The notes: generated by a model from the sequence alone, not told the origin. 64,000 nucleotides of DNA from an uncultured Candidatus Saccharibacteria bacterium (GCA_964361595.1 CAYIAX010000003.1:6071-70070); one strand, 5' to 3'; shown: positions 34,274-48,914, counted from the stretch's first letter. Numbers and translations are program-made.

Positions 34274-34307
34274 CAACATTCTAACATTCTGCAGAATGTT
34301 AGAATGT
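34274..34307. repeat. perfect 34 bp palindrome AACATTCTAACATTCT-GC-AGAATGTTAGAATGTT (ACATTCT-heptamer palindrome family, copy 1)
   Basis: Read directly; the reverse complement is identical. Confidence 0.9.
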
Positions 34308-34318
34308 TGTAATCCAGA

Positions 34319-34354
34319 ATTTACGTACGGAATTACGTAATTCCGTACGTAAAT
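34319..34354. repeat. perfect 36 bp palindrome ATTTACGTACGGAATTACGTAATTCCGTACGTAAAT
   Basis: Read directly; reverse complement identical. Lies 12 bp from copy 1 of the ACATTCT palindrome. Confidence 0.9.
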
Positions 34355-34423
34355 GTTTAAATTTTGCCGATCGCGGCGAAAACGATTTTTTAAACTCGCA
34401 AGGCAGGTTTGGCCGCAAACAAA

Positions 34424-34753
34424 CTATTTGGACTTAGATTGTTTGTTAAGCACCACTTTCTGTACCGAGGGGCTTACTGGTTTATCTGTCCGGTGAATAC
34501 AACCAGCCCAACAACAAGGCCGGCGCTTTCCTGCTTTTAGCTCTGTGATCGTCCGCTCGATATGATTTTTTCTAGTCTCCGACTTCTTGGCGGAGACAAT
34601 CCAGCAGATCCATTCGTTGTGTGCTAGTGGCGTAATATCCTCCCACGCTCTCCGCGCCGCTGGAGCAGAAGCAAGGGCGTTTCGTAAATCCGGTGGCACG
34701 CTGTGCACCGTATCGACGGCAAATTCATTTTTTAACTTTGAAAACTTCGCCAT
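34424..34753 (-). CDS. YdeI/OmpD-associated (OmdA) family protein
   Basis: PPDLRNALASAPAARRAWEDITPLAHNEWICWIVSAKKSETRKNHIERTITELKAGKRRP matches the YdeI C-terminal domain pattern. Confidence 0.6.
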   Translation of the reverse strand: MAKFSKLKNEFAVDTVHSVPPDLRNALASAPAARRAWEDITPLAHNEWICWIVSAKKSETRKNHIERTITELKAGKRRPCCWAGCIHRTDKPVSPSVQKVVLNKQSKSK

Positions 34754-35981
34754 TTTCTCCCCACGTCACCTTCCCATCTCGGCTTATGACAACATCGATA
34801 TAATTTTTTTTCTCGGGATATTCCGTTCCTTTTTCTTTCAAATTTATTTTCACTCCCTTAATGTTAAACCTACCAGTTAAAGCTAAAAGTCTTTTTTGTA
34901 ATTCCTCTGTGCTTCTCCACCCTCCTACCAAAAACATTTCAATTTCATCCTTTGGAATTCCGGACAATTCCAAGCCGCTTTCAAGCCTGCTCAAAATATC
35001 CGTTTCATTTTGTGTTGCCTCCATATGTGCAAAACCGAGTATCATTGCCCCTTCTTTTGTTTTACCTTTTGCACAAATAACCACACACGGACCAACACCA
35101 GTAGTTCCTATTGGTCCTTTGTCTGCTGGAATAATCTGAATATCGCCTTGCTTAACAAAAACACCCGATTCAACAGATTCTGTGGCCTGATCTATTTCGT
35201 TGGTAGCTGAAAGTTGGACAATCTTTTCTTGATATTCCCTTTCCTTTTTACGTCGCGATTGAATTTTTGCTTCAACTCCAAGTGGAAGCTGTATATTCAA
35301 CCGAGGATGTTTCTCTAGCAAATCCCTTATTAAGGGCATGGCTTTTAAGTCGCCAAAGGCAAATAATATCTCTGTCGGCGGAATGTAGCTTAGAATGGCA
35401 ACCGACTTTTTATCTGTGTCAATATTTACACAGAAAGAGTAATCCTCTCCTTCTATAGTACGGCTAAAACTTACCCGCCAAAATCCCTCATATACTCTTT
35501 CAAGGCCGGTAGTTATAGCGGTATCAACCCCAAGGAATTCTTCCAAGTCTGCGTTCGCCTTAGCCATTGTATCCCTGAATCCTTGTTTTTGATAGCTACC
35601 CTTACCCAATTCATTGAAATGTACAATCTTGTCTAATTCTTGATATATAAAATCATTATCTTTTCCTTCTTTATATTCCCACGTCATGTCCATTGGCCTA
35701 TCTTCAACAATGTTTTTTAATAAAGTATTTCTTCTCATCACTTCTAAGGCATTAGGAAGACCGGGATAATCTTTTGCATAGGTTTCGGCTTGTTGCGGTG
35801 ACCAAAAGCCAACTTTTTGGACTTTTTGTAATAAATCTAGAGCTTCATAAATATAAGTTGAATATTCCCCCGATTTATTTCGATCCATACTCACCGCCGG
35901 ATTTTTTAGTGAGGCCGTAGAAAATAAAATGATTTGCCCTTCTCCTGATTCAGTTGGTGATTTTTCAAATGGTGATTCCAT
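34725..35981 (-). CDS. hypothetical protein (418 aa), AT-rich, possible Cys/His hydrolase
   Basis: Long ORF with lower GC than the flanks. GVGPCVVICAKG...AMILGFAHM suggests a Cys...His pair. No family assigned. Confidence 0.5.
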   Translation of the reverse strand: MESPFEKSPTESGEGQIILFSTASLKNPAVSMDRNKSGEYSTYIYEALDLLQKVQKVGFWSPQQAETYAKDYPGLPNALEVMRRNTLLKNIVEDRPMDMTWEYKEGKDNDFIYQELDKIVHFNELGKGSYQKQGFRDTMAKANADLEEFLGVDTAITTGLERVYEGFWRVSFSRTIEGEDYSFCVNIDTDKKSVAILSYIPPTEILFAFGDLKAMPLIRDLLEKHPRLNIQLPLGVEAKIQSRRKKEREYQEKIVQLSATNEIDQATESVESGVFVKQGDIQIIPADKGPIGTTGVGPCVVICAKGKTKEGAMILGFAHMEATQNETDILSRLESGLELSGIPKDEIEMFLVGGWRSTEELQKRLLALTGRFNIKGVKINLKEKGTEYPEKKNYIDVVISRDGKVTWGENGEVFKVKK

Positions 35982-36043
35982 AGGCTTATTTTAATAAATT
36001 TTCAGAAGTCGGGGTGGGCGAGTCAATGACTTCATTTCCCAAC

Positions 36044-36133
36044 TGGCGGTGGGTGGAGGATTCGAACCTCCGAGGGGATTTCTCCCCAACCGCATTTCGA
36101 GTGCGGCGCGTTAGACCACTCTGCCAACCCACC
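36044..36133 (-). tRNA. tRNA-Ser (anticodon CGA), CCA encoded
   Basis: Cloverleaf by eye: acceptor GGTGGGT/ACCCACC, anticodon stem CCGCA/TGCGG, loop CTCGAAA, long variable arm, T-arm GGAGG-TTCGAAT-CCTCC. Confidence 0.8.
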
Positions 36134-36209
36134 TTATCTCTTTATTCCGGCTACAGTATATAATGGAAAATGATAGGATTTCAATAAAGGTCGAGATTTT
36201 AACTCCAAT

Positions 36210-36428
36210 ATGCAAATTTTCCCTAACTTCAGTTTACCGTGGTATGGGCTTGTGCCCTTGCTCGCTTGGTCCATCGTTTGGAAAGGTTTGGCGTTGTGGA
36301 AGGCTGCGGACCGCCGAGAAAAAATTTGGTTCTGGGTGCTTTTGGTCGTGAACACAGTCGGAATTCTGGAGATCCTGTATCTCTACGTTTTTAGCAAGAA
36401 AACTCCAACTGGAAATCCCGGTGTTTAG
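36210..36428 (+). CDS. small membrane protein (two TM helices)
   Basis: 72 aa ORF with two hydrophobic helices (LVPLLAWSIVWKGLALW; IWFWVLLVVNTVGILEILYLYVF). Confidence 0.35.
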   Translation: MQIFPNFSLPWYGLVPLLAWSIVWKGLALWKAADRREKIWFWVLLVVNTVGILEILYLYVFSKKTPTGNPGV

Positions 36429-36439
36429 AACTTTGCTTA

Positions 36440-36800
36440 CTCTAGCTTATCAAGTGTTTATACCGAGCTAATCGAAGTGTGCCCTCGGGAAGAAGCGAAC
36501 ATCGGTCGCCGTAGGCAACCTCCTTCAGAACCCTCGGTTCTGAATTCCGCCAGCTGGCGGACTCCTACACGGGAGGAATCTTATACTTTCCTCCCGACCC
36601 CTCCTTCGGTTCAATTCTTCCCTCGTTGCGCCCTCGGGAAGAATTGAACTCCCATCAACCCCTTAGGACGGGGCTGTTCTTCCGTTGAACTACGAGGGCG
36701 AAGATCGTTTGTAAGCTTATCATTTTTATGATATTTTTCAATCGCCGACGAGTTCGTCCAGATTCGCATTTATAGTCCGCACGAGGGGGGGTTACCCTGA
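36440..36800 (+). ncRNA. possible structured non-coding RNA region (unclassified)
   Basis: A 360 bp ORF-poor interval between a tRNA-Ser and a tRNA-Ala. It holds several strong hairpins (14 bp stem GTTCAATTCTTCCC...GGGAAGAATTGAAC; ACGGGAGGAA...TTTCCTCCCG; CAGAACC-CTCG-GTTCTGA) and a direct repeat GCCCTCGGGAAGAA x2. No match to RNase P, tmRNA or SRP consensus could be made by eye. Confidence 0.2.
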
Positions 36801-36811
36801 GCCGTATTGAA

Positions 36812-36882
36812 GGGCCTATAGTAAAATGGTATTACGCCTCCATGGCATGGAGGAGGTCGGGGTTCGATTCCCCATAGGTCCA
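36812..36882 (+). tRNA. tRNA-Ala (anticodon GGC)
   Basis: Acceptor GGGCCTA/TAGGTCC with the G3:U70 Ala identity pair, D-stem GTAA/TTAC, anticodon stem CCTCC/GGAGG, loop ATGGCAT, T-loop TTCGATT, discriminator A. Confidence 0.7.
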
Positions 36883-36939
36883 CGGGAAAAATTAATTTTA
36901 AATACTTCCAGACCATCTGCGCGTTGTATCAAAGAAAAG

Positions 36940-37599
36940 ATGAAAACGGTTTTGAACTATCTGGGCCAATTGAGAATCTATTCTTTTTTGGATTTGTTGG
37001 TTTTTGCAACGGCGCTGACAAAAGAAATAAATATTATTGTTGGCATTGGGCTTTTATGGCTGGGTTTTTTGTTTTATTTGGAAAGCCGCCACGACGACGA
37101 ATTCAGGTTAAAGATAAATAAGTATTTATGGACTGGGCCGTTCGCGTTTTCACTGGTTCTCTTGCCGGTTTGGATTTGTTTAAGCTTCGCGCTTTTTTCT
37201 TACCTCTATACCAAGAAAAAACAGCATGCGGCATGGGGTGTTTCGGCTCCCCTGTGGCGAGCTCTCCAAAACGGGATCATCGCGGCTGGTTTTAATTTCC
37301 AGTTGGCAATTTTAGCATTTATTTTGATTTTTATCCGGAATGTAATTGCCGATTTCAGAGACGCGCATGACGACAAGCAAAGAGGAATTCTAACCATTCC
37401 TGTCGTTCTGGGCGTAGGTAAAAATCAAGCATGGGCATTTTATGTTCACCTCATGCTGGTGGTTGCCGCAACCATAATCTGGCTCAATTTTTCATTTTTT
37501 GACAGCCGTTTAATTTTGCCAATTATTTTATTCCAGCTCTTTTCTTACCCGCTAACCCCGCGTCTAAGCAATCCGCGGTACTTGAATATTTACGGCTAA
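36940..37599 (+). CDS. polytopic membrane protein, possible UbiA-family prenyltransferase (short form)
   Basis: Multiple TM helices. The Asp-rich segment IADFRDAHDDKQRG resembles the second Asp-rich motif of UbiA-type prenyltransferases. Start moved to the ATG after the tRNA-Ala. Confidence 0.4.
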   Translation: MKTVLNYLGQLRIYSFLDLLVFATALTKEINIIVGIGLLWLGFLFYLESRHDDEFRLKINKYLWTGPFAFSLVLLPVWICLSFALFSYLYTKKKQHAAWGVSAPLWRALQNGIIAAGFNFQLAILAFILIFIRNVIADFRDAHDDKQRGILTIPVVLGVGKNQAWAFYVHLMLVVAATIIWLNFSFFDSRLILPIILFQLFSYPLTPRLSNPRYLNIYG

Positions 37600-37618
37600 A
37601 TAATTCAGAATTACTTAA

Positions 37619-38326
37619 ATGCCTCAAAATCCACTCCATGTAGTTTTAATCCCTGATGGCAACCGCCGCTGGGCGCGCGCGCAGGGCCTGCCGGAGCTTT
37701 TGGGCCATCGGGAAGGCGCGAAGGCCACGGAAAAGATTTTGGATGCCGCCCTTAAAACCGACATTACTCATCTGACTTTCTGGGGCGCATCCGTGGCGAA
37801 CTTAACGAAGCGTTCGCCCGAGGAAGTGGGGGCGCTGGCGGAAATTTTTGAGATTTATTTCAAGAAATTGGCGGAGCATCCCAGGTTACATGAACACAAG
37901 ATCCGCGTCCGCGTACTTGGGCGGTGGGCGGAACTCTTGCCGGCTCCGACCGTGGCCGCCGTAGAGAACATAATTAAAGTTACGGAGGGATACGGCGAGC
38001 GCAATCTTACGGTGCTGCTTGCTTATACTGGCACCGACGAGATACTTTACGCCATTAACCGCATTGCGAATGCGGCTCGCAAGGACCTCGAACTCGTCAT
38101 TGATGAAAAATTTGTCAAAATGAATTTATGGACGGCGGAATTGCCGCCGGTTGATTTTGTGATCCGCACGGGCGGCGAGCCGCATTGGTCGGCAGGGATG
38201 CTCATGTGGGACGTGGCCGAGGCGCATCTTCACTTCGCGGAAACTTTCTGGCCGGCCTTCAGCGAAACCGAGTTTCTAAAAGCCCTGGAAAATTTCAAAA
38301 ACACCGCGCGCCGCTTCGGCCAATAA
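37619..38326 (+). CDS. uppS: undecaprenyl diphosphate synthase (cis-isoprenyl transferase)
   Basis: HVVLIPDGNRRWA (cf. HVAIIMDGNGRWA), and RTGGEPHWS resembling the C-terminal RTSGExRxS motif. Confidence 0.85.
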   Translation: MPQNPLHVVLIPDGNRRWARAQGLPELLGHREGAKATEKILDAALKTDITHLTFWGASVANLTKRSPEEVGALAEIFEIYFKKLAEHPRLHEHKIRVRVLGRWAELLPAPTVAAVENIIKVTEGYGERNLTVLLAYTGTDEILYAINRIANAARKDLELVIDEKFVKMNLWTAELPPVDFVIRTGGEPHWSAGMLMWDVAEAHLHFAETFWPAFSETEFLKALENFKNTARRFGQ

Positions 38327-38334
38327 AACCATAC

Positions 38335-38366
38335 CCTTAAAAACTTGAGAACTTGAGATTTTAAGG
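38335..38366. repeat. 32 bp inverted-repeat arm (left) CCTTAAAAACTTGAGAACTTGAGATTTTAAGG
   Basis: Exact reverse complement of 38679-38710. Contains an internal tandem ACTTGAGA x2 flanked by CCTTAAAA/TTTTAAGG. Confidence 0.9.
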
Positions 38367-38387
38367 ATATGGTGCGATAATAAAATC

Positions 38388-38672
38388 ATGGGGAAAATAA
38401 AAACTGCGAGGCAAATGGAACGCCACTTAAAGGGGATGGCCAACCACCACCGCATCAACATTTTACTGCTTATCGCTCAAAGGGACGGAATAACTTTTGA
38501 GGAAATTGCGAGAACCCTAGAGGCAAATGAAAAGACAATTGGTGAACATGCAAGGCGGTTGCATCAAGCGGGGCTGGTTAATAAATCATATCAAGGCAAA
38601 TTTGTGGAATATACACTATCTCCATACGGCAAAATATTCGTCCGTTTTCTTAAATCTTTCCAAAGCATTTAA
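38388..38672 (+). CDS. ArsR-family winged-helix transcriptional regulator
   Basis: HHRINILLLIAQRDGITFEEIARTLEANEKTIGEHARRLHQAGLV is an ArsR/SmtB-type HTH. The gene is bracketed by a perfect 32 bp inverted repeat. Confidence 0.6.
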   Translation: MGKIKTARQMERHLKGMANHHRINILLLIAQRDGITFEEIARTLEANEKTIGEHARRLHQAGLVNKSYQGKFVEYTLSPYGKIFVRFLKSFQSI

Positions 38673-38678
38673 CAACAT

Positions 38679-38710
38679 CCTTAAAATCTCAAGTTCTCAA
38701 GTTTTTAAGG
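38679..38710. repeat. 32 bp inverted-repeat arm (right) CCTTAAAATCTCAAGTTCTCAAGTTTTTAAGG
   Basis: Exact reverse complement of 38335-38366. Confidence 0.9.
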
Positions 38711-38797
38711 GTGTCATTTGGTAATCTGGAGTAATCTGGGCTAAGGTAAGCTGAATATTGGAAAGGATGGTAACTTTGATATATCATAGAGCATCAA

Positions 38798-38870
38798 GGG
38801 CCCGTAGTTCAGCCCCGACGTTGCAAGTCGGGGAGGCCGCGATTGGCTTGGCAGGCCTCATTTGTCCCGA
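38798..38870 (+). pseudogene. tRNA-Ala 5' fragment (degenerate)
   Basis: Starts GGGCCCGTAGTTCAG like the intact tRNA-Ala at 38924, then loses the cloverleaf. Confidence 0.4.
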
Positions 38871-38923
38871 CGCACTTTTAAATAACCTATGATAAAGAAG
38901 TCGGGATCCCGTATGACTTTGGT

Positions 38924-38995
38924 GGGCCCGTAGTTTAGTGGTAAAACGCCTCATTTGCAATGAGGAGAGCGGCGGTTCGATCCCGCCCGGGTCCA
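38924..38995 (+). tRNA. tRNA-Ala (anticodon TGC)
   Basis: Acceptor GGGCCCG/CGGGTCC with G3:U70, D-arm GTTT-AGTGGTA-AAAC, anticodon stem CCTCA/TGAGG, loop TTTGCAA, T-arm GGCGG-TTCGATC-CCGCC, discriminator A. Confidence 0.8.
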
Positions 38996-39029
38996 CACGA
39001 GCCCACCAAAGTCCAGCGGGACAATGTGG

Positions 39030-39160
39030 AGTGGGCGGCCGCCCGGGTCCACGCGTGCTTCGAGCGCACAGGTAGGAAGGTTGGCAGAGTGGACGAATGC
39101 GCCGCACTTGTTCCCGATTTCTATGAATCTTTGATTCGTCGAGAAATCGCAATCCCGCAC
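39030..39160 (+). pseudogene. tRNA fragment cluster (tRNA-Ala 3' piece and tRNA-Ser 5' piece)
   Basis: Contains CGGCCGCCCGGGTCCACGCG (Ala T-arm/acceptor-like) and GGTTGGCAGAGTGGACGAATGCGCCGCACTTG (Ser 5'-half-like). Confidence 0.4.
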
Positions 39161-39165
39161 AAAGC

Positions 39166-39252
39166 GGTGGGGTGGCCGAGTGGTTGAAAGCGCCGCACTT
39201 GAAATGCGGTATACCCGGAAGGGTATCGTGAGTTCGAATCTCACCCCCACCG
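39166..39252 (+). tRNA. tRNA-Ser (anticodon TGA)
   Basis: Acceptor GGTGGGG/CCCCACC, anticodon stem CCGCA/TGCGG, loop CTTGAAA, long variable arm, T-arm GTGAG-TTCGAAT-CTCAC, discriminator G. Confidence 0.8.
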
Positions 39253-39254
39253 CT

Positions 39255-39440
39255 TTGGGCGCGGGAAATGCGGTAAGCCAGAAATGGCTTCGGAGGTTCG
39301 AATCCTCCACCTTCCGCCTAGGGATTAATACCCTTATGGGCCGCACTCGCCCGCCGAAGGCAGGGTCCCTGCCTACCGGCAGGCAGGCGCCCCAGGCGGA
39401 AAATGCGGTTGGGGAGAAATCCCCGTCAGATGCTTTGTAA
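39255..39440 (+). pseudogene. tRNA-Ser-like 3' fragments
   Basis: GAAATGCGGTAAGCCAGAAATGGCTTCGGAGGTTCGAATCCTCCACC is an anticodon-stem/variable arm/T-arm without a 5' half. A second piece, GAAAATGCGGTTGGGGAGAAATCCCC, nearly matches the variable arm of the tRNA-Ser at 36044-36133. Confidence 0.4.
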
Positions 39441-39488
39441 GACACATAATCGAGCGAAAGGAAATCGGTAATATGAAGTGGAATAATT

Positions 39489-40190
39489 ATGACAGGAATA
39501 TTTTTTGCACATCCACATACGCTTCTAGACCAAGTTGGTAAGGTTTTAGAAAAAGTTGGCGCTGAAAAATTCTTTTCAAGCTCGGATGAGGAAGTGAAGA
39601 AAGCCCGAGAAGGATTTGCGGCATATTTCTTCACGCTTACCTTAAAGCAATATCTACGGAGAGATTGGTGGTTGGCGCAGTACGACCAAGCCACTAGAGC
39701 TTACCCAGATTTTGATTTTATATCTTTTGCAGAAAATCCTGACGATATGAAGATGGAGTCTGTAGAGCTAACAGGCATTTACCCGCATTTCAAATCTTTT
39801 GACGAAGCCCTAAAAGTTGTTGAGAAGAAACAGAAGCAATATGGCGACAAGCCATTGAAGTTCAGTTTGTTAGTTTTTGTAAATCACGAAAAAAGCGAGG
39901 AGTGGATTAATCTGCTTAGAAAGAACGTGAGTAGTGAACACCCATTCTTGAGCATATGGACAATACACTTGAGGTTTAAGAAGGGTGGAAAGGAAGTCGG
40001 GAAAGCAGTTGCTCAACGAATTGTACCCTTGCCAGGCCTGAGAATTGAAGCTGACACGGATGATTCTGAAATACACAAGCGACAGCCTCTCCCAAGTTAT
40101 ATGGATCAACATCGGGAAGGTGAACAAACTTATATCACATTCAAGACCGAGTTTATTGATAAAATGCGAAAAAAGGTTGGAGCGTTATAG
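39489..40190 (+). CDS. hypothetical protein (233 aa), AT-rich
   Basis: ORF with a clear start, lower GC than the flanks, immediately downstream of the tRNA fragment cluster. No motif recognised. Confidence 0.5.
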   Translation: MTGIFFAHPHTLLDQVGKVLEKVGAEKFFSSSDEEVKKAREGFAAYFFTLTLKQYLRRDWWLAQYDQATRAYPDFDFISFAENPDDMKMESVELTGIYPHFKSFDEALKVVEKKQKQYGDKPLKFSLLVFVNHEKSEEWINLLRKNVSSEHPFLSIWTIHLRFKKGGKEVGKAVAQRIVPLPGLRIEADTDDSEIHKRQPLPSYMDQHREGEQTYITFKTEFIDKMRKKVGAL

Positions 40191-40316
40191 TCTTTCTATT
40201 ATCCTCAATGCGTGAACTATTACGAACCGCAGAAAAGCGAATGTGAAGGCGAGCGCGAAACTTCCGATCTTGATAGCGTGCTCGACCGGATTTTCCGGAG
40301 CGTACAACTGCGCTGA

Positions 40317-40352
40317 CAACATTCTCACATTCTCAAGAATGTGAGAATGTTG
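40317..40352. repeat. ACATTCT-heptamer palindrome family, copy 2 (CAACATTCTCACATTCT-CA-AGAATGTGAGAATGTTG)
   Basis: Read directly: arms are perfect complements around a 2 nt centre. Followed by the hairpin AAATGCGCCA-CCCGGC-TGGCGCATTT. Confidence 0.85.
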
Positions 40353-40413
40353 CGAATGCGCCACCCGGCTGGCGCATTTATAAATAGTGAAAACATGCTA
40401 TTGTTATTTCTAA

Positions 40414-41592
40414 ATGGAACTCCAGGTGGGGGCGAAAACTTTGCCGAAGAACAAGGAAGCTCAAAAACAAAATTTAAGAACGTGGATTGAAATCAATCAG
40501 CAAGCTTTGAAGAACAATCATAATGTTTTCAGGCGCCTGATCGGGCCAAAATGCCTTTTGATGAGCGTTGTTAAATCAAACGCTTACGGCCACGACTTGA
40601 TTGATTTTACCCGCGCCGCGGAAAATTTTGGCGTGGATTGGTTTGGCGTTGATTCAATTGTTGAGGCAGAAAGTTTAAGAAAAGCCGGTTTAAGAAAACC
40701 TGTTTTGGTTTTAGGCCACACCTTGCAGAATAGGGTGGAGGCCGCCGCTAAGAACCGCATTTCTCTGACCGTCGCTGATTTTTCGGCCCTGAAAAATTTA
40801 AAAAATATCAAGCAACGCGGCGCTAAATTAAAAATTCACCTCAAGGTTGATACCGGCATGCACCGTCAGGGCTTTTTTGTCTCGGAACTCCCAGCCGTCA
40901 TCAAGATTTTAAAGTCACAATCCGCCGCGGCGCTTGAGGGTGTTTATACTCATTTTGCTTCGGCCAAAAATCCAGCATTTCCGGCCGAAACTCTTAATCA
41001 AATTGAGGAATTTAAAAAAGCCGTTGATATTTTTGAATCAGCCGGTTTTAGCGGATTCATAAAACACGCCGCAGCCACGGCCGGTACGATTATTTTCCCT
41101 CAAAGTCATTTTGACTTGGTCAGAGTCGGAATCGGACTATACGGACTTTGGCCGTCAAAAGAAACCCGAGCGGCGTTTAAGGATAAAATGAAACTTAAGC
41201 CGGTTCTGGCGTGGAAGACCATTGTCGGCCAGATTAAAAACTTCCCCAAAGGAAGTAAAATCGGCTATGACCTAACGGAAATACTAGGCCGTCCTTCCCG
41301 AGTTGCGATTTTACCGATTGGCTATTGGCACGGGTTTCCGCGCTCGCTTTCCGGCATCGGCAAGGTGTTGATTGGCGGCCACGAGGCGAAGGTTCTTGGT
41401 CGGGTCTCGATGGACATGATTAGCGTTGACGTTACAAATGTCAGAAATGTAAAAATTGGCGACGAGGCGGTTTTGATCGGGAAACAGGGAAAGCTGGAAA
41501 TCTCGGTTGACGAGCTGGCGTATTTAAGCGACACGATTAACTACGAAATTACCACTCGCCTGAATCCATTGATCAAAAGAATTATGGTTTGA
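40414..41592 (+). CDS. alr: alanine racemase
   Basis: PLP-site VVKSNAYGHD, and C-terminal GRVSMDMISVD/YEITTRL. Length 392 aa. Confidence 0.85.
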   Translation: MELQVGAKTLPKNKEAQKQNLRTWIEINQQALKNNHNVFRRLIGPKCLLMSVVKSNAYGHDLIDFTRAAENFGVDWFGVDSIVEAESLRKAGLRKPVLVLGHTLQNRVEAAAKNRISLTVADFSALKNLKNIKQRGAKLKIHLKVDTGMHRQGFFVSELPAVIKILKSQSAAALEGVYTHFASAKNPAFPAETLNQIEEFKKAVDIFESAGFSGFIKHAAATAGTIIFPQSHFDLVRVGIGLYGLWPSKETRAAFKDKMKLKPVLAWKTIVGQIKNFPKGSKIGYDLTEILGRPSRVAILPIGYWHGFPRSLSGIGKVLIGGHEAKVLGRVSMDMISVDVTNVRNVKIGDEAVLIGKQGKLEISVDELAYLSDTINYEITTRLNPLIKRIMV

Positions 41593-41621
41593 GATTTAAC
41601 TCCGGAGGTTTGTTATAATCA

Positions 41622-42032: not shown

Positions 42033-42081
42033 AATCCGCGCATTGCTCTTTCCGGGGAAATAAGTAAAATAGGAATGCATC

Positions 42082-42153: not shown

Positions 42154-42256
42154 CAAAATGACCGACAAAAAAGTTCAAATTTTAGTGATGGGCGGGACCA
42201 TTGATTCGTATTGGGCGGTGTTTGAGAAAAAGCAGTAAAAGTTTTAAACTTTGAAT

Positions 42257-43301
42257 ATGGACCACAAACAAGAACTTGAAGAACTTGCGACCGAAGCCCG
42301 CCGGTTAGGCGGGCGGCTTTGAGGTCCAAGCCAAGCGTGAACGCATCGCGGAAATCGAGGCGCAAATGAGCGAGGCGGGTTTTTGGGGTGATCGCGCGAA
42401 GGCGGATGCGGCAATCAAAGAATTTGGAGAGCTGAAGGAAGTGGCCGATGCGTACGATGAAATTGAGCATGGCGTGGCGGGTCTTGCCGCGGCGTTCGAC
42501 GAAAAACGTTTCTTCGAGATCAAGAAAAAATTCCGCGACCTGGAGCTCCAGGAACTTTTCAAAGGCAAATATGATCTGCAGTCGGCCGTAATCTCGGTTT
42601 ATCCCGGCGTGGGTGGCGATGACGCGGAAGATTGGGCACGGATGCTTTTTGAAATGTACGAAAAGTACGCTGCTAAACGCAAATGGCAAATTGCAATTTT
42701 GGACAACAATCCGAACAGGCGAACGCTCGAGATGAAGGGGAAATATGCCTATGGATATTTGAAACATGAAGGCGGCGTGCATCGCCTTGTGCGCATCTCG
42801 CCCTTTTCGGCGCAGAAACTGCGCCACACGTCCTTCGCGCTGGTTGAAATCGTGCCCGACTTGCCGGCGCAAGAAGAATCAGCTTTCCAAATTCCCGAGC
42901 GGGATTTAAAGGTGGAATTTTACCGTTCGGGCGGACCCGGCGGGCAGAATGTGAACAAGGTGGAAACCGCCGTGCGGATCGTGCATATTCCCACAGGTTT
43001 AGTTGCAAGTTCGCAGGTCGAACGCGCACAAGCGCAGAATCGCGAACGCGCCCTGAAGCTTCTGAAGAGCAAAATTTTCCAGCTGATGGAGCGCGAGCAT
43101 GTCGCAGAGCTTTCCAATCTGCGCATTAAGGTTACGCCGGAATGGGGGAACCAGATCCGCTCCTATGTTTTGAATCCTTACCAGCTGGTCAAGGATCACC
43201 GCACGGAAGCCGAAACTTCCCAAGTGGAAGATGTTTTAAACGGGGAACTCGACAAATTTATTGAAGCCGAGGTACAATTGGGGACAGAATCTAGAAGCTA
43301 G
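42257..43301 (+). CDS. prfB: peptide chain release factor 2, with programmed +1 ribosomal frameshift at CTT TGA G (42317-42323)
   Basis: The short frame-0 ORF MDHKQELEELATEARRLGGRL ends at CTT-TGA, preceded by the SD-like GGCGGGCGG. The +1 frame continues into the 311 aa body carrying SGGPGGQNVNKVETAVRIVHIPTG (GGQ) and an SPF-type codon-recognition motif (SPFSAQ). Confidence 0.85.
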
Positions 43302-43437
43302 AATATAGCCGTTTTTGGCGAGTCTCGCCTCTGGCGGGAATCTAGAATATGCAAAAACTAAGCAATTCTAGGTACTAGGTTCTGAATTTCCTGCCTACCG
43401 GCAGGCAGGCAGGCAGGTAGGTAGGTTCTAAATTGCA

Positions 43438-44121
43438 ATGATCGCATTTCAAGGCATATCAAAGGTATATAACAGCCACTCCACCGCACTGGAGGATGTA
43501 AGTTTCCGCATTAATCCGGGCGAATTCGTCTCCTTGGTCGGACGTTCGGGCGCGGGCAAGTCAACCGTCATCAAGCTTTTAATCGGGGAAGAAAAACCCA
43601 CGCGCGGGAGAGTGTTTTTCGGCCAGTATGAAGTGAATAAATTAGGCGACAGCGAACTGCCGTTTTTCCGCCGCCACATCGGCATCGTTTTCCAGGACTT
43701 TAGGCTCCTGACTGCTAAAAATACGTATGAGAATGTTGCTTTCGCGCTTGAGGTCGCCGGCCGGCCGCAGCGGGAGATTAACGAACTTGTGCCGCAGGTT
43801 TTGGATATGGTAGGTTTGGGCGAGAAAATGTCCAATTTTCCGCATGAGCTCTCTGGCGGCGAGAAGCAGCGCGTGGCAATTGCCCGCGCCATGGTCCATC
43901 GTCCGGAAGTCATTATCGCCGACGAACCGACGGGCAATCTCGATCCCTTCCACAGCGCGGAAATTATCAATTTGCTTTTAAAGATCAACCAGCTTGGCAC
44001 CACCTTGATCCTCGCCACCCATGACCGGGAAATCATTAATGGGCTCGACAAGCGTGTAATTACGCTCGATGCGGGCCGCTTGATTCGCGATGAAGCGAGA
44101 GGGAAATATATACTCGTGTAA
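43438..44121 (+). CDS. ftsE: cell division ABC transporter ATP-binding protein FtsE
   Basis: Walker A GRSGAGKST, ABC signature LSGGEKQR, Walker B IIADEPTGNLD. Length 227 aa, and paired with the ftsX-like gene. Confidence 0.85.
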   Translation: MIAFQGISKVYNSHSTALEDVSFRINPGEFVSLVGRSGAGKSTVIKLLIGEEKPTRGRVFFGQYEVNKLGDSELPFFRRHIGIVFQDFRLLTAKNTYENVAFALEVAGRPQREINELVPQVLDMVGLGEKMSNFPHELSGGEKQRVAIARAMVHRPEVIIADEPTGNLDPFHSAEIINLLLKINQLGTTLILATHDREIINGLDKRVITLDAGRLIRDEARGKYILV

Positions 44122-44227
44122 ATTCGAAGCACGAAGCACGAAATTCGAAACAAATTCACAATGAAAGAAATCAATAAAAAATTAAGAACCATTTCGGATT
44201 TCGATATTCGAATTTCGAATTTTTAAT

Positions 44228-45136
44228 ATGATCACCGTCATCTCGCGCATAATCCATTACGGCATCCAAAACTTTTGGCGGAACGCTTGGCCGTCGGCGG
44301 CCACCGTGGCGATCATGATTTTGGCGCTTTTAGTTTCCGCCGGACTTATTTTCTTCAACGTCGCCACGGATCGGGCGGTCGCTTCGGTGCAGGATAAAAT
44401 CGATATCAGCGTTTACTTTAAATCCAACACGCCCGAGGACGAAATTTTGAACATTAAGCAATCGCTGGAGAGTTTGTCGGAAGTCCGCCAAGTCGAATAT
44501 ATCTCGAGCGGCCGCGCTTTGGAGATATTTAAAGAAGCGCACAAAGATGACCAAACGATTATCCAGGCCTTGGGCGAGCTCTCCGGCAATCCGCTCGTAG
44601 CTTCCTTGAACATTAAGGCGCAGCGGCCGGACCAGTATGCTTCAATCGCGCAATATCTTTCCTCGCCGAATCTCGACCGGTATGTGGAAAACTTGAGCTA
44701 TGCCAAAAACCAAATTGTAATCGAGCGCTTAAACACAATCATTCACAATGTGAATCGAGGCGGTCTGGCGCTTACAATCGCTTTGGCGATTTTGGCCGGA
44801 CTTGTGGTCTTCAACACCATTCGTTTGGCAATTTATTCTAACCGCGATGAGATCGGGATCATGCGAGCGGTTGGCGCCTCGAATTCTTTCGTGCGCGGCC
44901 CGTATGTCGTCGAAGGCGTAATCGCTGGAGTGGTCGCTGCCGTCATCAGCATGATTTTGGCTGCGCCATTGACTTATCTTGTTTCGCCATACCTCAATGT
45001 TTTCATTCCGGGACTCAATGTTTTCCAATATTACTACTCCAACTTGTTCGCGCTTTTGGGGTACCAGCTTTTGGCCGGAATTGCGATCGGAAGCTTTTCG
45101 AGCTTCGTCGCCGTCCGCAGATATTTGAAGAACTAG
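44228..45136 (+). CDS. ftsX: cell division permease-like protein FtsX
   Basis: N-terminal TM, a periplasmic domain, three C-terminal TMs with IGIMRAVGAS (FtsX-like permease motif), directly downstream of ftsE. Confidence 0.75.
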   Translation: MITVISRIIHYGIQNFWRNAWPSAATVAIMILALLVSAGLIFFNVATDRAVASVQDKIDISVYFKSNTPEDEILNIKQSLESLSEVRQVEYISSGRALEIFKEAHKDDQTIIQALGELSGNPLVASLNIKAQRPDQYASIAQYLSSPNLDRYVENLSYAKNQIVIERLNTIIHNVNRGGLALTIALAILAGLVVFNTIRLAIYSNRDEIGIMRAVGASNSFVRGPYVVEGVIAGVVAAVISMILAAPLTYLVSPYLNVFIPGLNVFQYYYSNLFALLGYQLLAGIAIGSFSSFVAVRRYLKN

Positions 45137-45149
45137 GAGAGTTTAACCA

Positions 45150-45584
45150 TCAAAAATTTTTTTTGATCTCGGCGCAGATCTTTTCCGTAACTTCTTGTGA
45201 GGTAGCTTTCGTCGGTTCGGGGAAGCAATTTCTGCCCACGCGCTCATCGGTAAAAGTTTCGCCGGCAAATTCCCGCACGGGATTTTTTTCGTAGCGGGGG
45301 ATTACGTGCCAGTGCACGAAATGATCTTTGTTAGCAAGATGCGCGTAGTTCAAGCGGTCTGGCCGGAATGATTTTTGTAAGGCCGCCGCTAGTTTTGGCA
45401 TGATCTCGTTCCAAAACTCATCTCTCTCCGCCTGGGTTATTTCGAGCGGATTCTCGAGCACACGGCTTTTCAGATAGACAATACTGCGGCCGAGATATGA
45501 TTGATTATCGCGATGCAAAATTACGTTCCAGTGCTGGCCTTCGTAGATTAAATATTGGCTGTCGAGAAACGGAATTTGTTCCAT
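45150..45584 (-). CDS. HIT family hydrolase
   Basis: Histidine triad HFVHWHVIP. Confidence 0.8.
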   Translation of the reverse strand: MEQIPFLDSQYLIYEGQHWNVILHRDNQSYLGRSIVYLKSRVLENPLEITQAERDEFWNEIMPKLAAALQKSFRPDRLNYAHLANKDHFVHWHVIPRYEKNPVREFAGETFTDERVGRNCFPEPTKATSQEVTEKICAEIKKNF

Positions 45585-45593
45585 GTTTTAATC

Positions 45594-46391
45594 TTACGTC
45601 TCCGACGTGAATCGCGTGAGCAGGCCTTTTTTGAGCACGATTTTGAACATTTGAATGAAAACGAAATAGGCAAGTACGAGATATGCCGCGGCAAGGACTG
45701 CGCCCAGGATCAACTTTTCCGGCGAAAATGTTCCGTGGATGACGAGCGAACGCAAACCTTCAAACACATACGAAGGCGGGATGGCTTTGGCGATCGGTTG
45801 GAGCGAACTAGGCAGGGCGGCAATCGGATAAAACACTCCGGCGAAGGGACCAAGCATAAAGGGGACAAGCCAGGCCAGCCATTCGGCCGCGGGTCCGAAC
45901 CGGAAAACAAAAGCGGTAGTTACGATTCCCAAAGCCAAGCCAAACAGGAAGATGACAAGGAGGAAGAGGAAAAGCGGCAAGCCGAGCGAGAGAATGTTGA
46001 AGCCGAAAGCAAAACTTCCAATTAGTGTCATCACGGCAAATCCGGCAGAGCTTGTTGTAATGCTCGCAACAATAAGTCCCAGAATGTATTCGTTCACCTT
46101 TAAGGGCGAGGCAAAGAGATTCAGGAAATTCCGCGACCACATGTCTTCGAAAAAGGCGAGGATCACTCCTTGCTGTACGCGGATCAAAAAACTCCAGAGG
46201 ATTACGGCGCCCAAAAGCACCGGCACAAAATCAAAGGTTGCTTGGCCGACGGAATTTAAATAACGAGTCGTAAACCCCCACAAAATAACATCCAGCGTGA
46301 TCCAAAGGAAAATATTGCAGATCCGCGTGATGTTTTTGCGAAGCAGGAAAAATTGGCGAAGGATGATTGCGGAGACTCTAATAAGGCTCAT
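45594..46391 (-). CDS. ABC-2 type transporter permease
   Basis: Six-TM protein, translationally coupled to the upstream ABC ATPase (4 nt overlap). Confidence 0.7.
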   Translation of the reverse strand: MSLIRVSAIILRQFFLLRKNITRICNIFLWITLDVILWGFTTRYLNSVGQATFDFVPVLLGAVILWSFLIRVQQGVILAFFEDMWSRNFLNLFASPLKVNEYILGLIVASITTSSAGFAVMTLIGSFAFGFNILSLGLPLFLFLLVIFLFGLALGIVTTAFVFRFGPAAEWLAWLVPFMLGPFAGVFYPIAALPSSLQPIAKAIPPSYVFEGLRSLVIHGTFSPEKLILGAVLAAAYLVLAYFVFIQMFKIVLKKGLLTRFTSET

Positions 46392-47131
46392 AATTCAAGC
46401 GATAATGGTTCGCGCGCGACCGTTATGAATAATTCTTCCAAGTCTTTTTTCCCGTGTTCCTGCGGCAGCAATTTAGGATCGCCTGCCAAAAGTATTTTCC
46501 CGTGCGAAAGGAAAAGCACGCGGTCGCATACCGCTTCCACTTCATGCATGTTGTGCGAGGTCCAAAGAATTCCAGCTTTGGCTTCCGCGGCGTAGTAATG
46601 GATTTTCTCGCGGATCAAGTGGGCGTTTAAGGGGTCAAGCGAAGCGGTCGGTTCGTCCAAGAAGAGAAGCGCAGGGGAGTTCACCATCGCCTTGGCCAGC
46701 ATCACGCGCGTATTTTCTCCGGAGGAGAGGAGGCCGCATTTTGTATTTCTGAACTCCGTAAGCTCAAAGGCCGTGAGCATCTCATTCGCGCGTTTTTTTG
46801 CCGCTGGGACCTCGTAAAGCAAACAGAATATGTAAAGATTCTGCCAGACTGTAAGATTGCCGGGCAGCTGCGCATAGACGGCGGAAAAATTAGTTTTGGC
46901 CATCACTTCCGAGCGGTTGCCGCGCAATGGCTTGCCCAGGATTTCGATTGAGCCACTTGTGGGTTCTAAAACGCCCATGAGCATGCTGATCGTCGTTGTT
47001 TTGCCGGCGCCGTTCGGTCCCAGAAGTCCTACCACCTCGCCGGCGGCCACGCTAAAGGAAACATCTCGCACAGCTTCAATGTCTTTGTAGGCTTTGGAAA
47101 GGTTTTTGACGGTTAAAACGGGATTTTGCAT
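46388..47131 (-). CDS. ABC transporter ATP-binding protein
   Basis: Walker A GPNGAGKTT, signature LSSGENTRV, Walker B LLFLDEPT. Start moved to the internal ATG (MQNPVLTV), 16 codons into the ORF. Confidence 0.85.
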   Translation of the reverse strand: MQNPVLTVKNLSKAYKDIEAVRDVSFSVAAGEVVGLLGPNGAGKTTTISMLMGVLEPTSGSIEILGKPLRGNRSEVMAKTNFSAVYAQLPGNLTVWQNLYIFCLLYEVPAAKKRANEMLTAFELTEFRNTKCGLLSSGENTRVMLAKAMVNSPALLFLDEPTASLDPLNAHLIREKIHYYAAEAKAGILWTSHNMHEVEAVCDRVLFLSHGKILLAGDPKLLPQEHGKKDLEELFITVAREPLSLEL

Positions 47132-47217
47132 GTAATCGTGATTATACCGGTTTTCCTTAAATACCCAAAGTGGCGGCAAAGAGTAGAATTAAATAAAGGT
47201 CGGGATTTTTAAAAACT

Positions 47218-47520
47218 ATGGCCAAAGAAGTTATAAAGCGCGGCGGCAAGCATGAGCCGTTCCGGGCGGAAAAAGTGAAAGGCGCGGTGCGCGGCGCCTT
47301 GCGCGATATCCATATTGGCGGCGCGCGCGCCAAGCGGATCGTAGGGAAAGTTTCTGCGCCCGTGCTGCGGTTTGCCGCGAAGCGGAAAACGATAAAGACC
47401 TCGGTTTTGCGGCAGAAGCTTATCTCCGGTTTGCGTAAAGTCGAACCCGCGGCCGCCAAAGCCTGGCAGAAGTTCGACGCCCGGCGCAAAGCCCGCCGCG
47501 GAAAAGCACGCCGCCGCTAA
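47218..47520 (+). CDS. ATP-cone domain protein (standalone) with basic C-terminal tail
   Basis: MAKEVIKRGGKHEPFRAEKVKGAVRGA resembles the ATP-cone N-terminus (VIKRDGxxExFDxxKI) of NrdR/NrdA. Confidence 0.55.
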   Translation: MAKEVIKRGGKHEPFRAEKVKGAVRGALRDIHIGGARAKRIVGKVSAPVLRFAAKRKTIKTSVLRQKLISGLRKVEPAAAKAWQKFDARRKARRGKARRR

Positions 47521-47522
47521 AC

Positions 47523-47556
47523 GACATTCTCACATTCTGCAGAATGTGAGAATGTC
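47523..47556. repeat. ACATTCT-heptamer palindrome family, copy 3 (GACATTCTCACATTCT-GC-AGAATGTGAGAATGTC), perfect
   Basis: Read directly. Followed by the inverted repeat AAATGCGCCACCC...GGGTGGCGCATTT (47558-47607). Confidence 0.9.
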
Positions 47557-47674
47557 ATAAATGCGCCACCCGGGTGTCCCATTCGTAGCCTTGCGCGAAG
47601 TATGGGTGGCGCATTTAGTTGATGTTTGAACCCAGCAAGTGGGAGATTTACTTCGTGTTTTGCGAACCGCGCAA

Positions 47675-47714
47675 AACAACATTCTAACATTCTATAGAAT
47701 GTTAGAATGTTGTT
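47675..47714. repeat. ACATTCT-heptamer palindrome family, copy 4 (40 bp perfect palindrome AACAACATTCTAACATTCT-AT-AGAATGTTAGAATGTTGTT)
   Basis: Read directly. Preceded by the hairpin GTTTTGCG-AACC-GCGCAAAAC. Confidence 0.9.
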
Positions 47715-47725
47715 TGATCTGAATT

Positions 47726-48280
47726 TTAATTTATCTGCGCGCTTGCGGCTGTCGTCGCTTGGCGGCGCGCGAGGAGCATCGTTACAAACAAAAGCGCGAA
47801 AGCCGTAAATGCCATCATTGGGATCGTGATGTAGCCGAAGAGCAAGACGAATCTTTGCGAACAGGCCGCCGAGTAGCCCACGGCCGCGCAGGGCAGGGCG
47901 GGAGCGACGCCCAGCTGAAGCAAATAATGATAGCCGGCAATTACACCGCCCACGCCGGACATGACCAGGCTGTAGCCGATGATATTTTTATCTTTCTTCG
48001 CGAGCGCGAGGCCCAAAAGCAGCGCCTGCGGGTACATGAAGATGCGCTGGAACCAGCAAAGCTTGCAAGGCTCATAGCCCGCGATTTCGGAATAGAAAAG
48101 ACTGCCCAAAGTTGCGAGAAGGGCGACGAGGAAGGCGAACAGCACGGCCTTGTTTAAAAAATAATCCAGCTTCGGCGAACGGTTTTTTGTGAGGAGAATA
48201 AAAATTGCAATTAAGGTGAGCGCTCCGCCCAAAATCGTAAGCGGCCCCAAAATATTATTAACTAAAGGAACGAGTGACAT
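47726..48280 (-). CDS. DsbB/BdbC-like disulfide bond formation protein
   Basis: Four TM helices. CKLCWFQRI resembles the BdbC CxxC motif, with a second Cys pair in a later loop. Start moved to the internal ATG to remove overlap with the adjacent gene. Confidence 0.6.
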   Translation of the reverse strand: MSLVPLVNNILGPLTILGGALTLIAIFILLTKNRSPKLDYFLNKAVLFAFLVALLATLGSLFYSEIAGYEPCKLCWFQRIFMYPQALLLGLALAKKDKNIIGYSLVMSGVGGVIAGYHYLLQLGVAPALPCAAVGYSAACSQRFVLLFGYITIPMMAFTAFALLFVTMLLARRQATTAASAQIN

Positions 48281-48281
48281 A

Positions 48282-48662
48282 TTATTGCGTCGCCGGAAGT
48301 TCGCAGCCGGTTTTCTCGGCCAGGGTTTCAAGTGCGACTTCACCGCTCAAGCGGCTCCCGTCCTTAAATTCCCAGGTGGGATAGCCCTCGATACCTTTTT
48401 TTGTGCAGAAGGGAAGCTGGGCTTGGCCGTTCGGCGTGGAGCATTCCACATAATTCAATAACTTTTGCGAGCGGCCGAACATGGCTTTCTGGTTTTGGCA
48501 GTGCGGACACCAAAAGGCGCCATAGAAAATTGCGCCGCGATCCTTAAGACAAGTGGCAAAGGCGTCGAGCTTATCAGGCTTATTCGCCTCACTGCGCCAG
48601 ACGAAGAATAAAGCGACGACTGCGATAGTAACTACTCCGTAAATAGCCCACTTTTTAGACAT
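48282..48662 (-). CDS. thioredoxin-fold thiol:disulfide oxidoreductase (DsbA/BdbA-like), membrane-anchored
   Basis: N-terminal TM and a CxxC active site FWCPHCQ. Sits immediately upstream of the DsbB-like gene. Confidence 0.7.
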   Translation of the reverse strand: MSKKWAIYGVVTIAVVALFFVWRSEANKPDKLDAFATCLKDRGAIFYGAFWCPHCQNQKAMFGRSQKLLNYVECSTPNGQAQLPFCTKKGIEGYPTWEFKDGSRLSGEVALETLAEKTGCELPATQ

Positions 48663-48755
48663 AGGTAATATTATAGAACACTCTGGCTGAAATTAAAAAG
48701 GATTGGCGTGGATAGGGGACAAAACGTTTAAATAAGTGTCCAAAAGCTAAATCAA

Positions 48756-48799
48756 AGTTACTAAAATTATACTACAATTGTAGTATAATTTTAGTAACT
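48756..48799. repeat. perfect 44 bp palindrome AGTTACTAAAATTATACTACAATTGTAGTATAATTTTAGTAACT
   Basis: Read directly; reverse complement identical. Contains TATAAT on both strands and lies in the divergent intergenic region between the thioredoxin-like gene (-) and the 49051 gene (+). Confidence 0.9.
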
Positions 48800-48818
48800 C
48801 TTTTCCTGATTAGTCATG

Positions 48819-48856
48819 ACAACATTCCAACATTCTGCAGAATGTTGGAATGTTGT
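48819..48856. repeat. ACATTCT-heptamer palindrome family, copy 5 (38 bp perfect: ACAACATTCCAACATTCT-GC-AGAATGTTGGAATGTTGT)
   Basis: Read directly. Confidence 0.9.
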
Positions 48857-48882
48857 TTTGCGACAGGTGCAGGCGAGCGACG

Positions 48883-48914
48883 ACATTCTAATATTCTATA
48901 GAATGTGAGAATGT
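48883..48914. repeat. ACATTCT-heptamer palindrome family, copy 6 (imperfect: ACATTCTAATATTCT-AT-AGAATGTGAGAATGT)
   Basis: Read directly; two mismatches between the arms. Confidence 0.8.

Follow-up and report, generated by a model that had tools for sequence, protein, structure and literature searches.

A dispersed palindromic element shared by Patescibacteria and some PVC-group bacteria, its six copies in a Saccharibacteria contig, and its coupling to a winged-helix protein family

Six short palindromes built from tandem ACATTCT heptamers lie between the genes of a 64,000-nt stretch of DNA from an uncultured Candidatus Saccharibacteria bacterium; this whole stretch is referred to as the window. 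An earlier note on this DNA had placed the six palindromes, and both their positions and their make-up (four perfect, one with a 2-nt centre, one with arm mismatches) were confirmed, as was their intergenic location, by listing of open reading frames (ORFs) together with Pfam (Table 1). The flanks were searched too, for about 6 kb past each end, so that 76 kb were examined. Scanning the window for the half-motif ACATTCTNACATTCT with at most one mismatch gives 12 matches, which form 6 inverted pairs, where shuffles lead one to expect 0.03. The bare heptamer ACATTCT occurs 28 times in the window against 5.5 expected, and 22 of these 28 occurrences fall within the six palindromes. Direct reading and an inverted-repeat finder describe the window set as ACATTCY-N-ACATTCT-NN-AGAATGT-N-RGAATGT, with lengths of 32-42 bp. 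No further copies are present in the other 49 kb of the window or within about 6 kb past either end, and an Rfam scan of the window returned tRNAs only.

The genes around the copies are varied. Copy 1 occupies the spacer of convergent DEAD helicase (+) and OmdA (-) genes and as RNA forms a hairpin of -23.1 kcal/mol (z = -8.7). Copy 2, together with a GC-rich hairpin, stands between a hypothetical gene (+) and an alr-NUDIX pair (+), 61 nt upstream of alr. Copies 3 and 4 share one convergent spacer, copy 3 beginning 2 nt past the stop codon of an ATP-cone ORF (+) and copy 4 lying 10 nt beyond the 3' end of dsbB (-). The ORF that stops 2 nt before copy 3 (47218-47520, 100 aa) has an ATP-cone domain only (Pfam 2.3e-6), without the NrdR zinc ribbon. 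Copies 5 and 6 are found in a divergent spacer between a thioredoxin-like gene (-) and a DUF5677-AbiU2 gene (+). Each window copy folds on either strand as a hairpin of -23 to -24 kcal/mol. The second hairpin reported earlier behind copies 2 and 3 is real, and the one behind copy 2 looks like an ordinary intrinsic terminator. In L014, an unrelated metagenome-assembled genome (MAG; loci of other genomes carry L numbers throughout), a GC-rich hairpin (GCGCCACCCGG-N-TGGCGC, 7318-7335) directly follows the palindrome as it does behind copy 2, and the hairpin behind copy 3 differs by its 32-nt loop. The composite of palindrome and hairpin can be said to recur, since it is seen at two window copies and in L014.

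Table 1. Palindromes, accessory hairpins and winged-helix gene of the window (positions counted from its first letter)
Feature	Position	Strand	Description
Copy 1 palindrome	34274..34309	.	perfect 18+18, arms CAACATTCTAACATTCTG and CAGAATGTTAGAATGTTG
Copy 2 palindrome	40317..40352	.	17-2-17, CA centre non-complementary
Copy 3 palindrome	47523..47556	.	perfect 17+17
Copy 4 palindrome	47674..47715	.	perfect 21+21
Copy 5 palindrome	48819..48856	.	perfect 19+19; outer heptamer ACATTCC, the commonest variant in other genomes
Copy 6 palindrome	48880..48917	.	imperfect, 86% complementary; mixed arm variants TAAT / TC
Accessory GC-rich hairpin with T-run (AATGCGCCACCCGGCTGGCGCATTT)	40355..40378	+	immediately 3' of copy 2
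Same hairpin stem (TAAATGCGCCACCC...GGGTGGCGCATTTA), loop 32 nt	47558..47617	+	immediately 3' of copy 3
Winged-helix gene P0001, 94 aa, ArsR/SmtB fold (predicted)	38388..38672	+	subtype B, recognition helix EKTIGEH
Upstream flank of P0001, diverged subtype-2 site	38331..38370	.	8-bp duplication ATACCCTTAAAAACT-TGAGAACTTG-AGATTTTAAGGATAT, 'ACTTGAG' tandem; then GATAAT, ATG
Downstream flank of P0001	38675..38714	.	inverted copy of upstream flank, 38/40 identical; begins 2 nt past stop

The palindrome is not peculiar to this genome. A scan of 185,579 species-representative genomes with ACATTCNNACATTCTNNAGAATGTNNGAATGT found it at 120 or more exact loci in about 108 species-level assemblies, as counted from record titles. 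Among the matches listed, the carriers are mostly Patescibacteria, which also go by the name Candidate Phyla Radiation (CPR), and belong to many classes (Saccharibacteria, Nomura-, Lipton-, Harrison-, Brenner-, Zambryski-, Giovannoni-, Doudnabacteria and others); the labels of about 14 read Verrucomicrobiota, Chthoniobacterales, Kiritimatiellia, Planctomycetota/Phycisphaerae, Omnitrophota, Bacteroidales or Gammaproteobacteria. Some of these 14 carry the palindrome on contigs of 0.1-6 Mb. The element is common, near letter-for-letter, to many Patescibacteria and some bacteria of the Planctomycetes-Verrucomicrobia-Chlamydiae (PVC) group. Its presence in about 108 other assemblies excludes the local segmental duplication that the earlier note had allowed for. 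That note had also stated that no family like the repetitive extragenic palindromic (REP) sequences is known to have been described in CPR genomes, and literature searches by sequence strings and keywords found no description of the palindrome either. Copy number is apparently low, one to few per 8 kb at best.

The consensus of the element is A-n-A-ACATTC(C/T)-N-ACATTCT-NN-AGAATGT-N-(G/A)GAATGT-T-n-T, and symmetry holds at its two variable arm positions in 91% and 85% of copies, where roughly 50% would be expected. The symmetry of the arms reaches only about 3 nt beyond the core on each side, and a palindromy extended far past the core was rejected. At least 26 positions of the palindrome are fixed, a number that would far exceed the need of a transcription factor that has to find a few sites in a 1-Mb genome. 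Centre dinucleotides were counted as GC 49, TG or CA 57, TA 14, AT 4 and CG 3, and individual genomes tend toward one centre type. Two other candidate functions were rejected: an uptake signal, as the heptamer does not exceed chance level outside the palindromes, and single-region sites of the parS, Ter or dif kind, as the loci are scattered, the GC skew has no switch and the architecture is wrong.

A protein family accompanies the element. ORFs on both sides of every copy were called and clustered, and the 245 flanking ORFs contain only one large cluster, with 23 members of 90-100 aa that carry a weak HTH_5/ArsR signature. The 120 palindrome loci span 806 kb, and the hidden Markov model (HMM) of this family has matches in 31 of them; in about 24 cases the match is no more than 100 bp from a copy. 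For comparison, 80 loci (L122-L201, 802 kb) were taken around relatives of Alr that are 49-80% identical to it; in this control Patescibacteria DNA the family HMM finds nothing at E < 1e-20 and has a single weak match (E 3.4e-7), and copies or half-sites of the palindrome number zero. The Alr relatives share no synteny with the window, and the gene order around alr (40414-41592) is unconserved. Near family genes, extra copies of the palindrome occur at 0.060 per kb as against 0.014, a weak signal (per-locus Fisher p = 0.044). The family itself is large, with at least 1780 clusters at 90% identity, and its members are named 'ArsR family', 'winged helix-turn-helix' or 'hypothetical' in the source. 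A search of 2.9 million viral contigs gave zero motif matches and one family-protein match; the element is not phage-borne.

The assignment to ArsR draws on Pfam HTH_5 (1.9e-7) and on a PDB sequence search in which HlyU is the best solved relative (1e-5); the family protein scores under all curated NCBIfam ArsR cut-offs. An AlphaFold model (AF2) with a mean predicted local distance difference test (pLDDT) score of 86.5 has the topology a1-a2-a3-aR-wing-a5, and its best structural matches are SmtB, CadC, SqrR, HlyU, MarR proteins and the centromere-binding AspA. Judged by this model, the partner is a protein of the ArsR/SmtB winged-helix fold. It is without cysteine, and no obvious alpha5 metal site is visible in its sequence. 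When 47 sequences are aligned, 36 of the 94 columns are invariant, including His13, His20, His54, Tyr68 and Tyr80, which would exceed expectation for a simple repressor. Family proteins of Kiritimatiellia and Liptonbacteria are 83% identical and some CPR-CPR pairs only 48%, which points to transfer between phyla. There is no recurrent partner beside the family gene: neighbours differ at every locus and no transposase or recombinase recurs, and a PD-(D/E)XK nuclease is found upstream in the P0053 group only.

When 130 nt are printed on each side of each family gene, nearly every gene is seen to be flanked by two copies of the palindrome. The upstream copy ends 2-25 nt ahead of a TATAAT-like box and the start codon, and a good -10 box at promoter spacing accompanies 43% of these upstream copies, compared with 4-5% of solo copies or random positions. 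At its 3' end the gene shares its stop codon with the downstream copy, the C-terminal K-T-F-stop being encoded by AAA ACA TTC TAA, which is the first heptamer. At one downstream copy (L079, about 1370-1440), nine tandem ACATTCTA units, an 8-nt heptamer microsatellite, run into the palindrome. In 15 of 20 loci the same dinucleotide stands at the centre of both bracketing copies, where shuffles would lead one to expect 6.0; this identity statistic is inflated because genomes tend to prefer one centre type. Where the centres are not palindromic their orientation is mixed once subtype-B loci are included, being direct in L202 and L013 and inverted in L215, L217 and the window.

Protein and palindrome vary together. 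Proteins of subtype A, with the helix FKTISQH, pair with ACATTCY palindromes. Proteins of subtype B (EKTIGEH) are bracketed by ACATCCTTA(C/T)A..CT-NN-AG..T(G/A)TAAGGATGT, the ACATCCTTAC.A..CT type, in L202-205, L214, L215 and L217, and subtype-B loci also have nearby solo copies of the subtype-2 palindrome. L113 encodes a B-like protein with Ser instead of Gly in the helix and has canonical flanks. The divergent members L028, L068 and L069 have other palindromes, of identical kind on both flanks. The element and the genes that it brackets, a single family encoding proteins of 90-100 aa with the predicted ArsR/SmtB fold, are genetically coupled and vary in step, and it is chiefly from this joint variation that binding of the palindrome by the protein is predicted. 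By the same pairing, the six ACATTCT copies of the window would belong to subtype A. The window's own ArsR-like regulator had been proposed as the binder of the ACATTCT motif; its gene, P0001, is of the sister subtype, and its predicted cognate palindrome is of the ACATCCTTAC... type and not ACATTCT. The more general proposal of operator sites for one regulator held in part: the link to an ArsR-like family is the strongest result obtained, and the solo copies are not placed as operators.

Solo copies accumulate just behind genes. The spacers that hold a copy are co-directional in 51 cases, convergent in 26 and divergent in 7, against a background in the same loci of 548, 103 and 114 (chi-square p = 8e-5), so that convergent spacers are enriched 2.3-fold and divergent ones depleted. 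Neighbouring genes face the copy by their 3' end in 95 cases and by their 5' end in 57, often at a distance of 0-30 nt. A -10 box at promoter spacing is found beside 5% of solo copies, equal to random. The 3'-facing neighbours are random-looking housekeeping genes, including SecA, GatB, MreB, TIM and ThrRS, and gene families seen twice seem to be about as many as in random draws from small genomes. The exception among 5'-facing neighbours is an orthologue of the NUDIX hydrolase, in 6 of 56, which also follows alr in the window. DEAD-box helicase genes end beside a copy in the window and in L202, and a palindrome of the family stands behind PIF1-type helicase genes in L007, L018, L202 and L204, with a different one behind that of the window (53251-54870). 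The stem of the palindrome is A+T-rich, unlike the G+C-rich stem of an intrinsic terminator.

Copies also lie inside genes. Long ORFs read through about a dozen copies, nearly always in the frame xAA CAT TCC AAC ATT CTN NAG AAT GTT GGA ATG TCx, which encodes the peptide (Q/E)HS(N/H)IL(E/Q/K)NV(G/R)MS. About 8% of copies are in-frame within housekeeping genes. None of the six window copies is in-gene; ten copies sit within Pfam-verified genes of other genomes. These carriers are TsaD, HsdS, PGK, an AIR-synthase-type (PurL-like) protein, TGT, a GT4 glycosyltransferase, an FAD oxidase, a MurD-like ligase, TspO and an amidohydrolase; they share one reading frame and have protein domains on either side of the copy. 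Compared with solved homologues, the in-gene copy is an insertion, of 13 residues relative to E. coli TsaD and about 9 relative to Thermotoga PGK. The TspO proteins of L075 (112-650, an Omnitrophota MAG, canonical subtype) and L202 (4982-5479, a CPR contig, subtype 2) carry the in-frame copy in the same loop and are about 75% identical, as judged by eye from the alignment; in L004, TspO directly follows the family gene. The element has reached new sites by copying, some of them in-frame within essential genes, and it is this insertion within housekeeping genes that makes the copying clear. Operators of the ordinary kind show no such behaviour.

The account favoured here, which is held with moderate confidence, is that the six copies represent a tiny dispersed and horizontally spread palindromic element that is coupled to, and likely bound by, a protein family of the ArsR/SmtB fold. 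By analogy with ArsR/SmtB repressors, which use 12-2-12 operators, the palindrome (15-2-15, with two tandem heptamers per arm) is the predicted site of the family protein, probably bound by dimers on the inverted heptamers. The upstream copy at the family gene overlaps the promoter and could mediate autorepression, and the bracketing pair would insulate the gene. Solo copies, the six of the window among them, are most likely tolerated insertions. Once transcribed, a solo copy would form a hairpin of -23 kcal/mol in either direction, and a protein-bound copy could block RNA polymerase; the likeliest effect would then be that of a bidirectional insulator or stabiliser of 3' ends and not of a promoter operator. 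A wider proposal is put forward more tentatively and is rather doubtful at present: the element may represent a new class of palindrome that has, as its dedicated partner, a sequence-specific winged-helix DNA-binding protein in place of a transposase, a pair that spreads between CPR and PVC bacteria and seeds protein-bound palindromes behind genes and even within essential ones. Such a pair may give ultra-small genomes a protein-dependent bidirectional insulator, or the protein may itself guide the copying reaction. The element could prove a new class if the winged-helix protein is its only dedicated factor.

A number of observations weigh against the favoured account. The link between protein and site is one of genetic coupling and co-variation only, both read from sequence. 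No subtype-A gene is present in the window or in 6 kb past either end (76 kb). Around 133 copies, at 7 boundary offsets, no excess of direct repeats of 2-8 nt was found that would indicate target-site duplication, and no mobilising enzyme adjoining the element was found among flanking and neighbouring genes; because of these two results, mobility is read from its outcome rather than a mechanism. T-content behind the hairpin is independent of which way the upstream gene runs, which lends nothing to the putative terminator or insulator role of solo copies, and copies 2 and 3 are directly trailed by an ordinary terminator, which suggests that the palindrome alone does not terminate. The NUDIX orthologue with a copy just upstream in about six genomes hints at genuine regulation. 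Some cross-phylum assignments depend on the binning of MAGs, and gene calls in the other loci come from a crude longest-ORF caller.

Other explanations can be weighed against the same evidence. If the palindromes were a classical regulon, they would be operators of an ArsR-type repressor for adjacent genes (alr-NUDIX, dsbB-trx, DUF5677 and others), kept by selection and immobile. The operator-at-promoter layout of the upstream copy at the family gene agrees with this, as does the resemblance of 15-2-15 to the 12-2-12 operators of ArsR/SmtB proteins; a divergent promoter region holds two window copies, copies are found in association with TspO in L004, L075 and L202, and the NUDIX orthologue that stands after alr in the window is preceded at 0-47 nt by a copy in L014, L017, L027, L031, L035 and L071. 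The bulk of the copies behaves otherwise, however: convergent spacers are the enriched ones and divergent ones the depleted, solo copies lack a -10 box at promoter spacing beyond the random level, the gene families next to copies show the diversity of random draws, ten copies are in-frame within unrelated housekeeping genes, and the sequence is conserved far past what recognition needs. A regulon is therefore regarded as unlikely. Plain bidirectional intrinsic terminators, or hairpins at mRNA 3' ends that are merely alike, would account for hairpins that are stable whichever way the copy is read (-23 to -24 kcal/mol), for positions right after stop codons and between convergent genes, and for flanking T-runs at some copies, such as copies 1 and 4 on the - strand. 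This is very improbable, since a hairpin role alone explains neither the letter-level conservation across phyla nor the coupling to a protein, T-richness is independent of the direction of the upstream gene, a separate canonical terminator stands after copies 2 and 3, and some copies precede the family gene's -10 box or lie within ORFs.

A 15-2-15 palindrome with a free 2-nt centre also resembles a crossover site of the hix or res-site-I kind; the recombinase would then be encoded elsewhere, the winged-helix gene would be an integrated cassette, and solo copies would be empty sites or scars. The family gene does stand in an unrelated context in every genome, bracketing centres are shared in 15 of 20 loci against 6.0 expected, and matches between the two gene-proximal arms, and between the two gene-distal ones, occur in the window and L202, in the manner left by integration into a split site. 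That arm pattern, tried as a 'cassette in split site' signature, was rejected: it holds in the window and L202 and fails in the canonical loci. The genome preference for one centre inflates the identity statistic, centre orientation becomes mixed with the subtype-B loci, no recombinase recurs near the sites in the loci examined, the homology breakpoints of the near-identical L202 and L204 are not at the palindromes, and a cassette would have disrupted the essential genes that contain in-frame copies, so that those copies cannot be its scars, all of which leaves this explanation improbable. The idea that the copies are REPs proper, moved by a REP-associated tyrosine transposase (RAYT, an IS200-like HUH transposase) encoded elsewhere, with the winged-helix gene as a frequent landing place, is given hardly any weight. 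Size, extragenic 3' placement and the missing target-site duplications are REP-like, and a repeat-flanked gene mirrors the RAYT flanked by REPs. Here, however, the flanked, co-varying gene encodes a winged-helix protein and not a Y1 transposase, the GTAG/CTAC head is absent, and the same sequence recurs across phyla, unlike REP families, which are species- or genus-specific. The proposed check for co-occurrence with RAYT came out negative, a Y1 transposase being found neither among the tested window ORFs nor as a recurrent neighbour of the listed loci.

The dispersed, protein-coupled element favoured above can also be placed beside known systems. With REP/REPIN sequences and RAYT of Enterobacteria and Pseudomonas (a REPIN being a REP doublet forming a hairpin) it shares extragenic palindromes of 30-40 bp, mostly behind genes or in convergent spacers, the lack of target-site duplications, and one small gene flanked by the repeat and co-varying with it. 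It differs in that the partner, a 94-aa protein of predicted ArsR fold, has no HUH/Y1 catalytic domain, and in its low copy number, cross-phylum sequence and in-frame genic copies; its consensus A-A-ACATTCY...RGAATGT-T-T is without the GTAG/CTAC head. The earlier description as a set of the REP or bacterial interspersed mosaic element (BIME) type can thus be kept for the REP-like placement, the absence of conserved neighbours and the copying around, and not for a RAYT partner or the REP head motif. The operators of ArsR/SmtB proteins (SmtB, CzrA, CadC) likewise consist of inverted arms about a 2-nt centre and stand at the promoter of the regulator itself, and the protein fold is the same; the arms here are 15 nt with two tandem heptamers, the protein is below curated ArsR subfamily cut-offs and without Cys or a visible alpha5-type metal site, and most sites, including the six of the window, lie off promoters and are scattered as in a family of repeats. 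Plasmid pNOB8 has a centromere-binding protein, AspA, an ArsR-like winged helix of about 90 aa that binds a palindrome beside its own gene and matches the family model with a template modelling (TM) score of 0.76 over 74 columns, but it works with ParA/ParB on a plasmid, whereas no partition genes are found here and the sites are scattered on chromosomes.

Rickettsia palindromic elements (RPEs) are described as lying in-frame in unrelated genes, where they are read into protein as a conserved peptide (Ogata et al., 2000, summarised in PMC10969869). The likeness extends to housekeeping genes as the hosts of the conserved peptide and to the lack of a known transposase. RPEs are about 100-150 bp long and confined to Rickettsia, whereas the present element has 32-42 bp, adds 9-13 residues and occurs in several phyla (CPR, PVC). 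It also appears to have a dedicated DNA-binding protein as partner. No parent insertion sequence (IS) or transposase is seen within 8 kb of the 120 loci. [quoted passage not shown]

CPR bacteria make up a large share of bacterial diversity, and their regulation and mobile DNA are almost uncharted. The element offers a protein-DNA pair that can be tested, as its subtypes predict which helix residue (Ser or Gly) reads which base. If it is truly mobile with a DNA-binding partner only, it would be a second partnership of repeat and protein beside REP/RAYT, and its mobility would extend to other phyla the RPE phenomenon of selfish DNA translated within essential proteins. Its sharing across phyla could serve to trace transfer between CPR bacteria and their neighbours. 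In annotation, in-frame inserts of 9-13 residues (TsaD, PGK, TGT, MurD-like) and stop codons supplied by the element need to be recognised.

Further palindromes and other features were observed around these loci. The divergent spacer of copies 5 and 6 also holds a perfect 44-bp palindrome of unrelated sequence (48756-48799, AGTTACTAAAATTATACTACAA joined to TTGTAGTATAATTTTAGTAACT) with TATAAT in both directions. Palindromes at 60910-60951 (perfect, 42 bp) and 624-661 (84%, 38 bp) have the common arms TAAAGTTAAG...CTTAACTTTA and appear to constitute another palindrome family of this genome. A CGTACG core is shared by palindromes at 34319-34354 and 54833-54870 of the window, at 2390-2745 of L028 and at about 545 of L043. 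In L028, the divergent winged-helix member is bracketed by palindromes of the ...CTTATTCGTACGAATAAG... type, which suggests a third protein/site pair of the same kind. Between 48900 and 54870 the GC content of the window is 0.38-0.42, compared with 0.49 overall, and this block, bounded by copies 5/6 and by the palindrome at 54833, contains DUF5677, an HEPN/AbiU2 protein, a tRNA, a LAGLIDADG protein and a PIF1-type helicase; it has the look of a defence island that was acquired. GC content is also low in a smaller block (34.3-36.0 kb), which begins at copy 1. Just past the winged-helix cassette, at 38798-38812, the first approximately 12 nt of tRNA-Ala(tgc) (38924-38996), GGGCCCGTAGTT, are repeated 125 nt upstream of the tRNA gene, and this partial repeat may be the remnant of an integration event.

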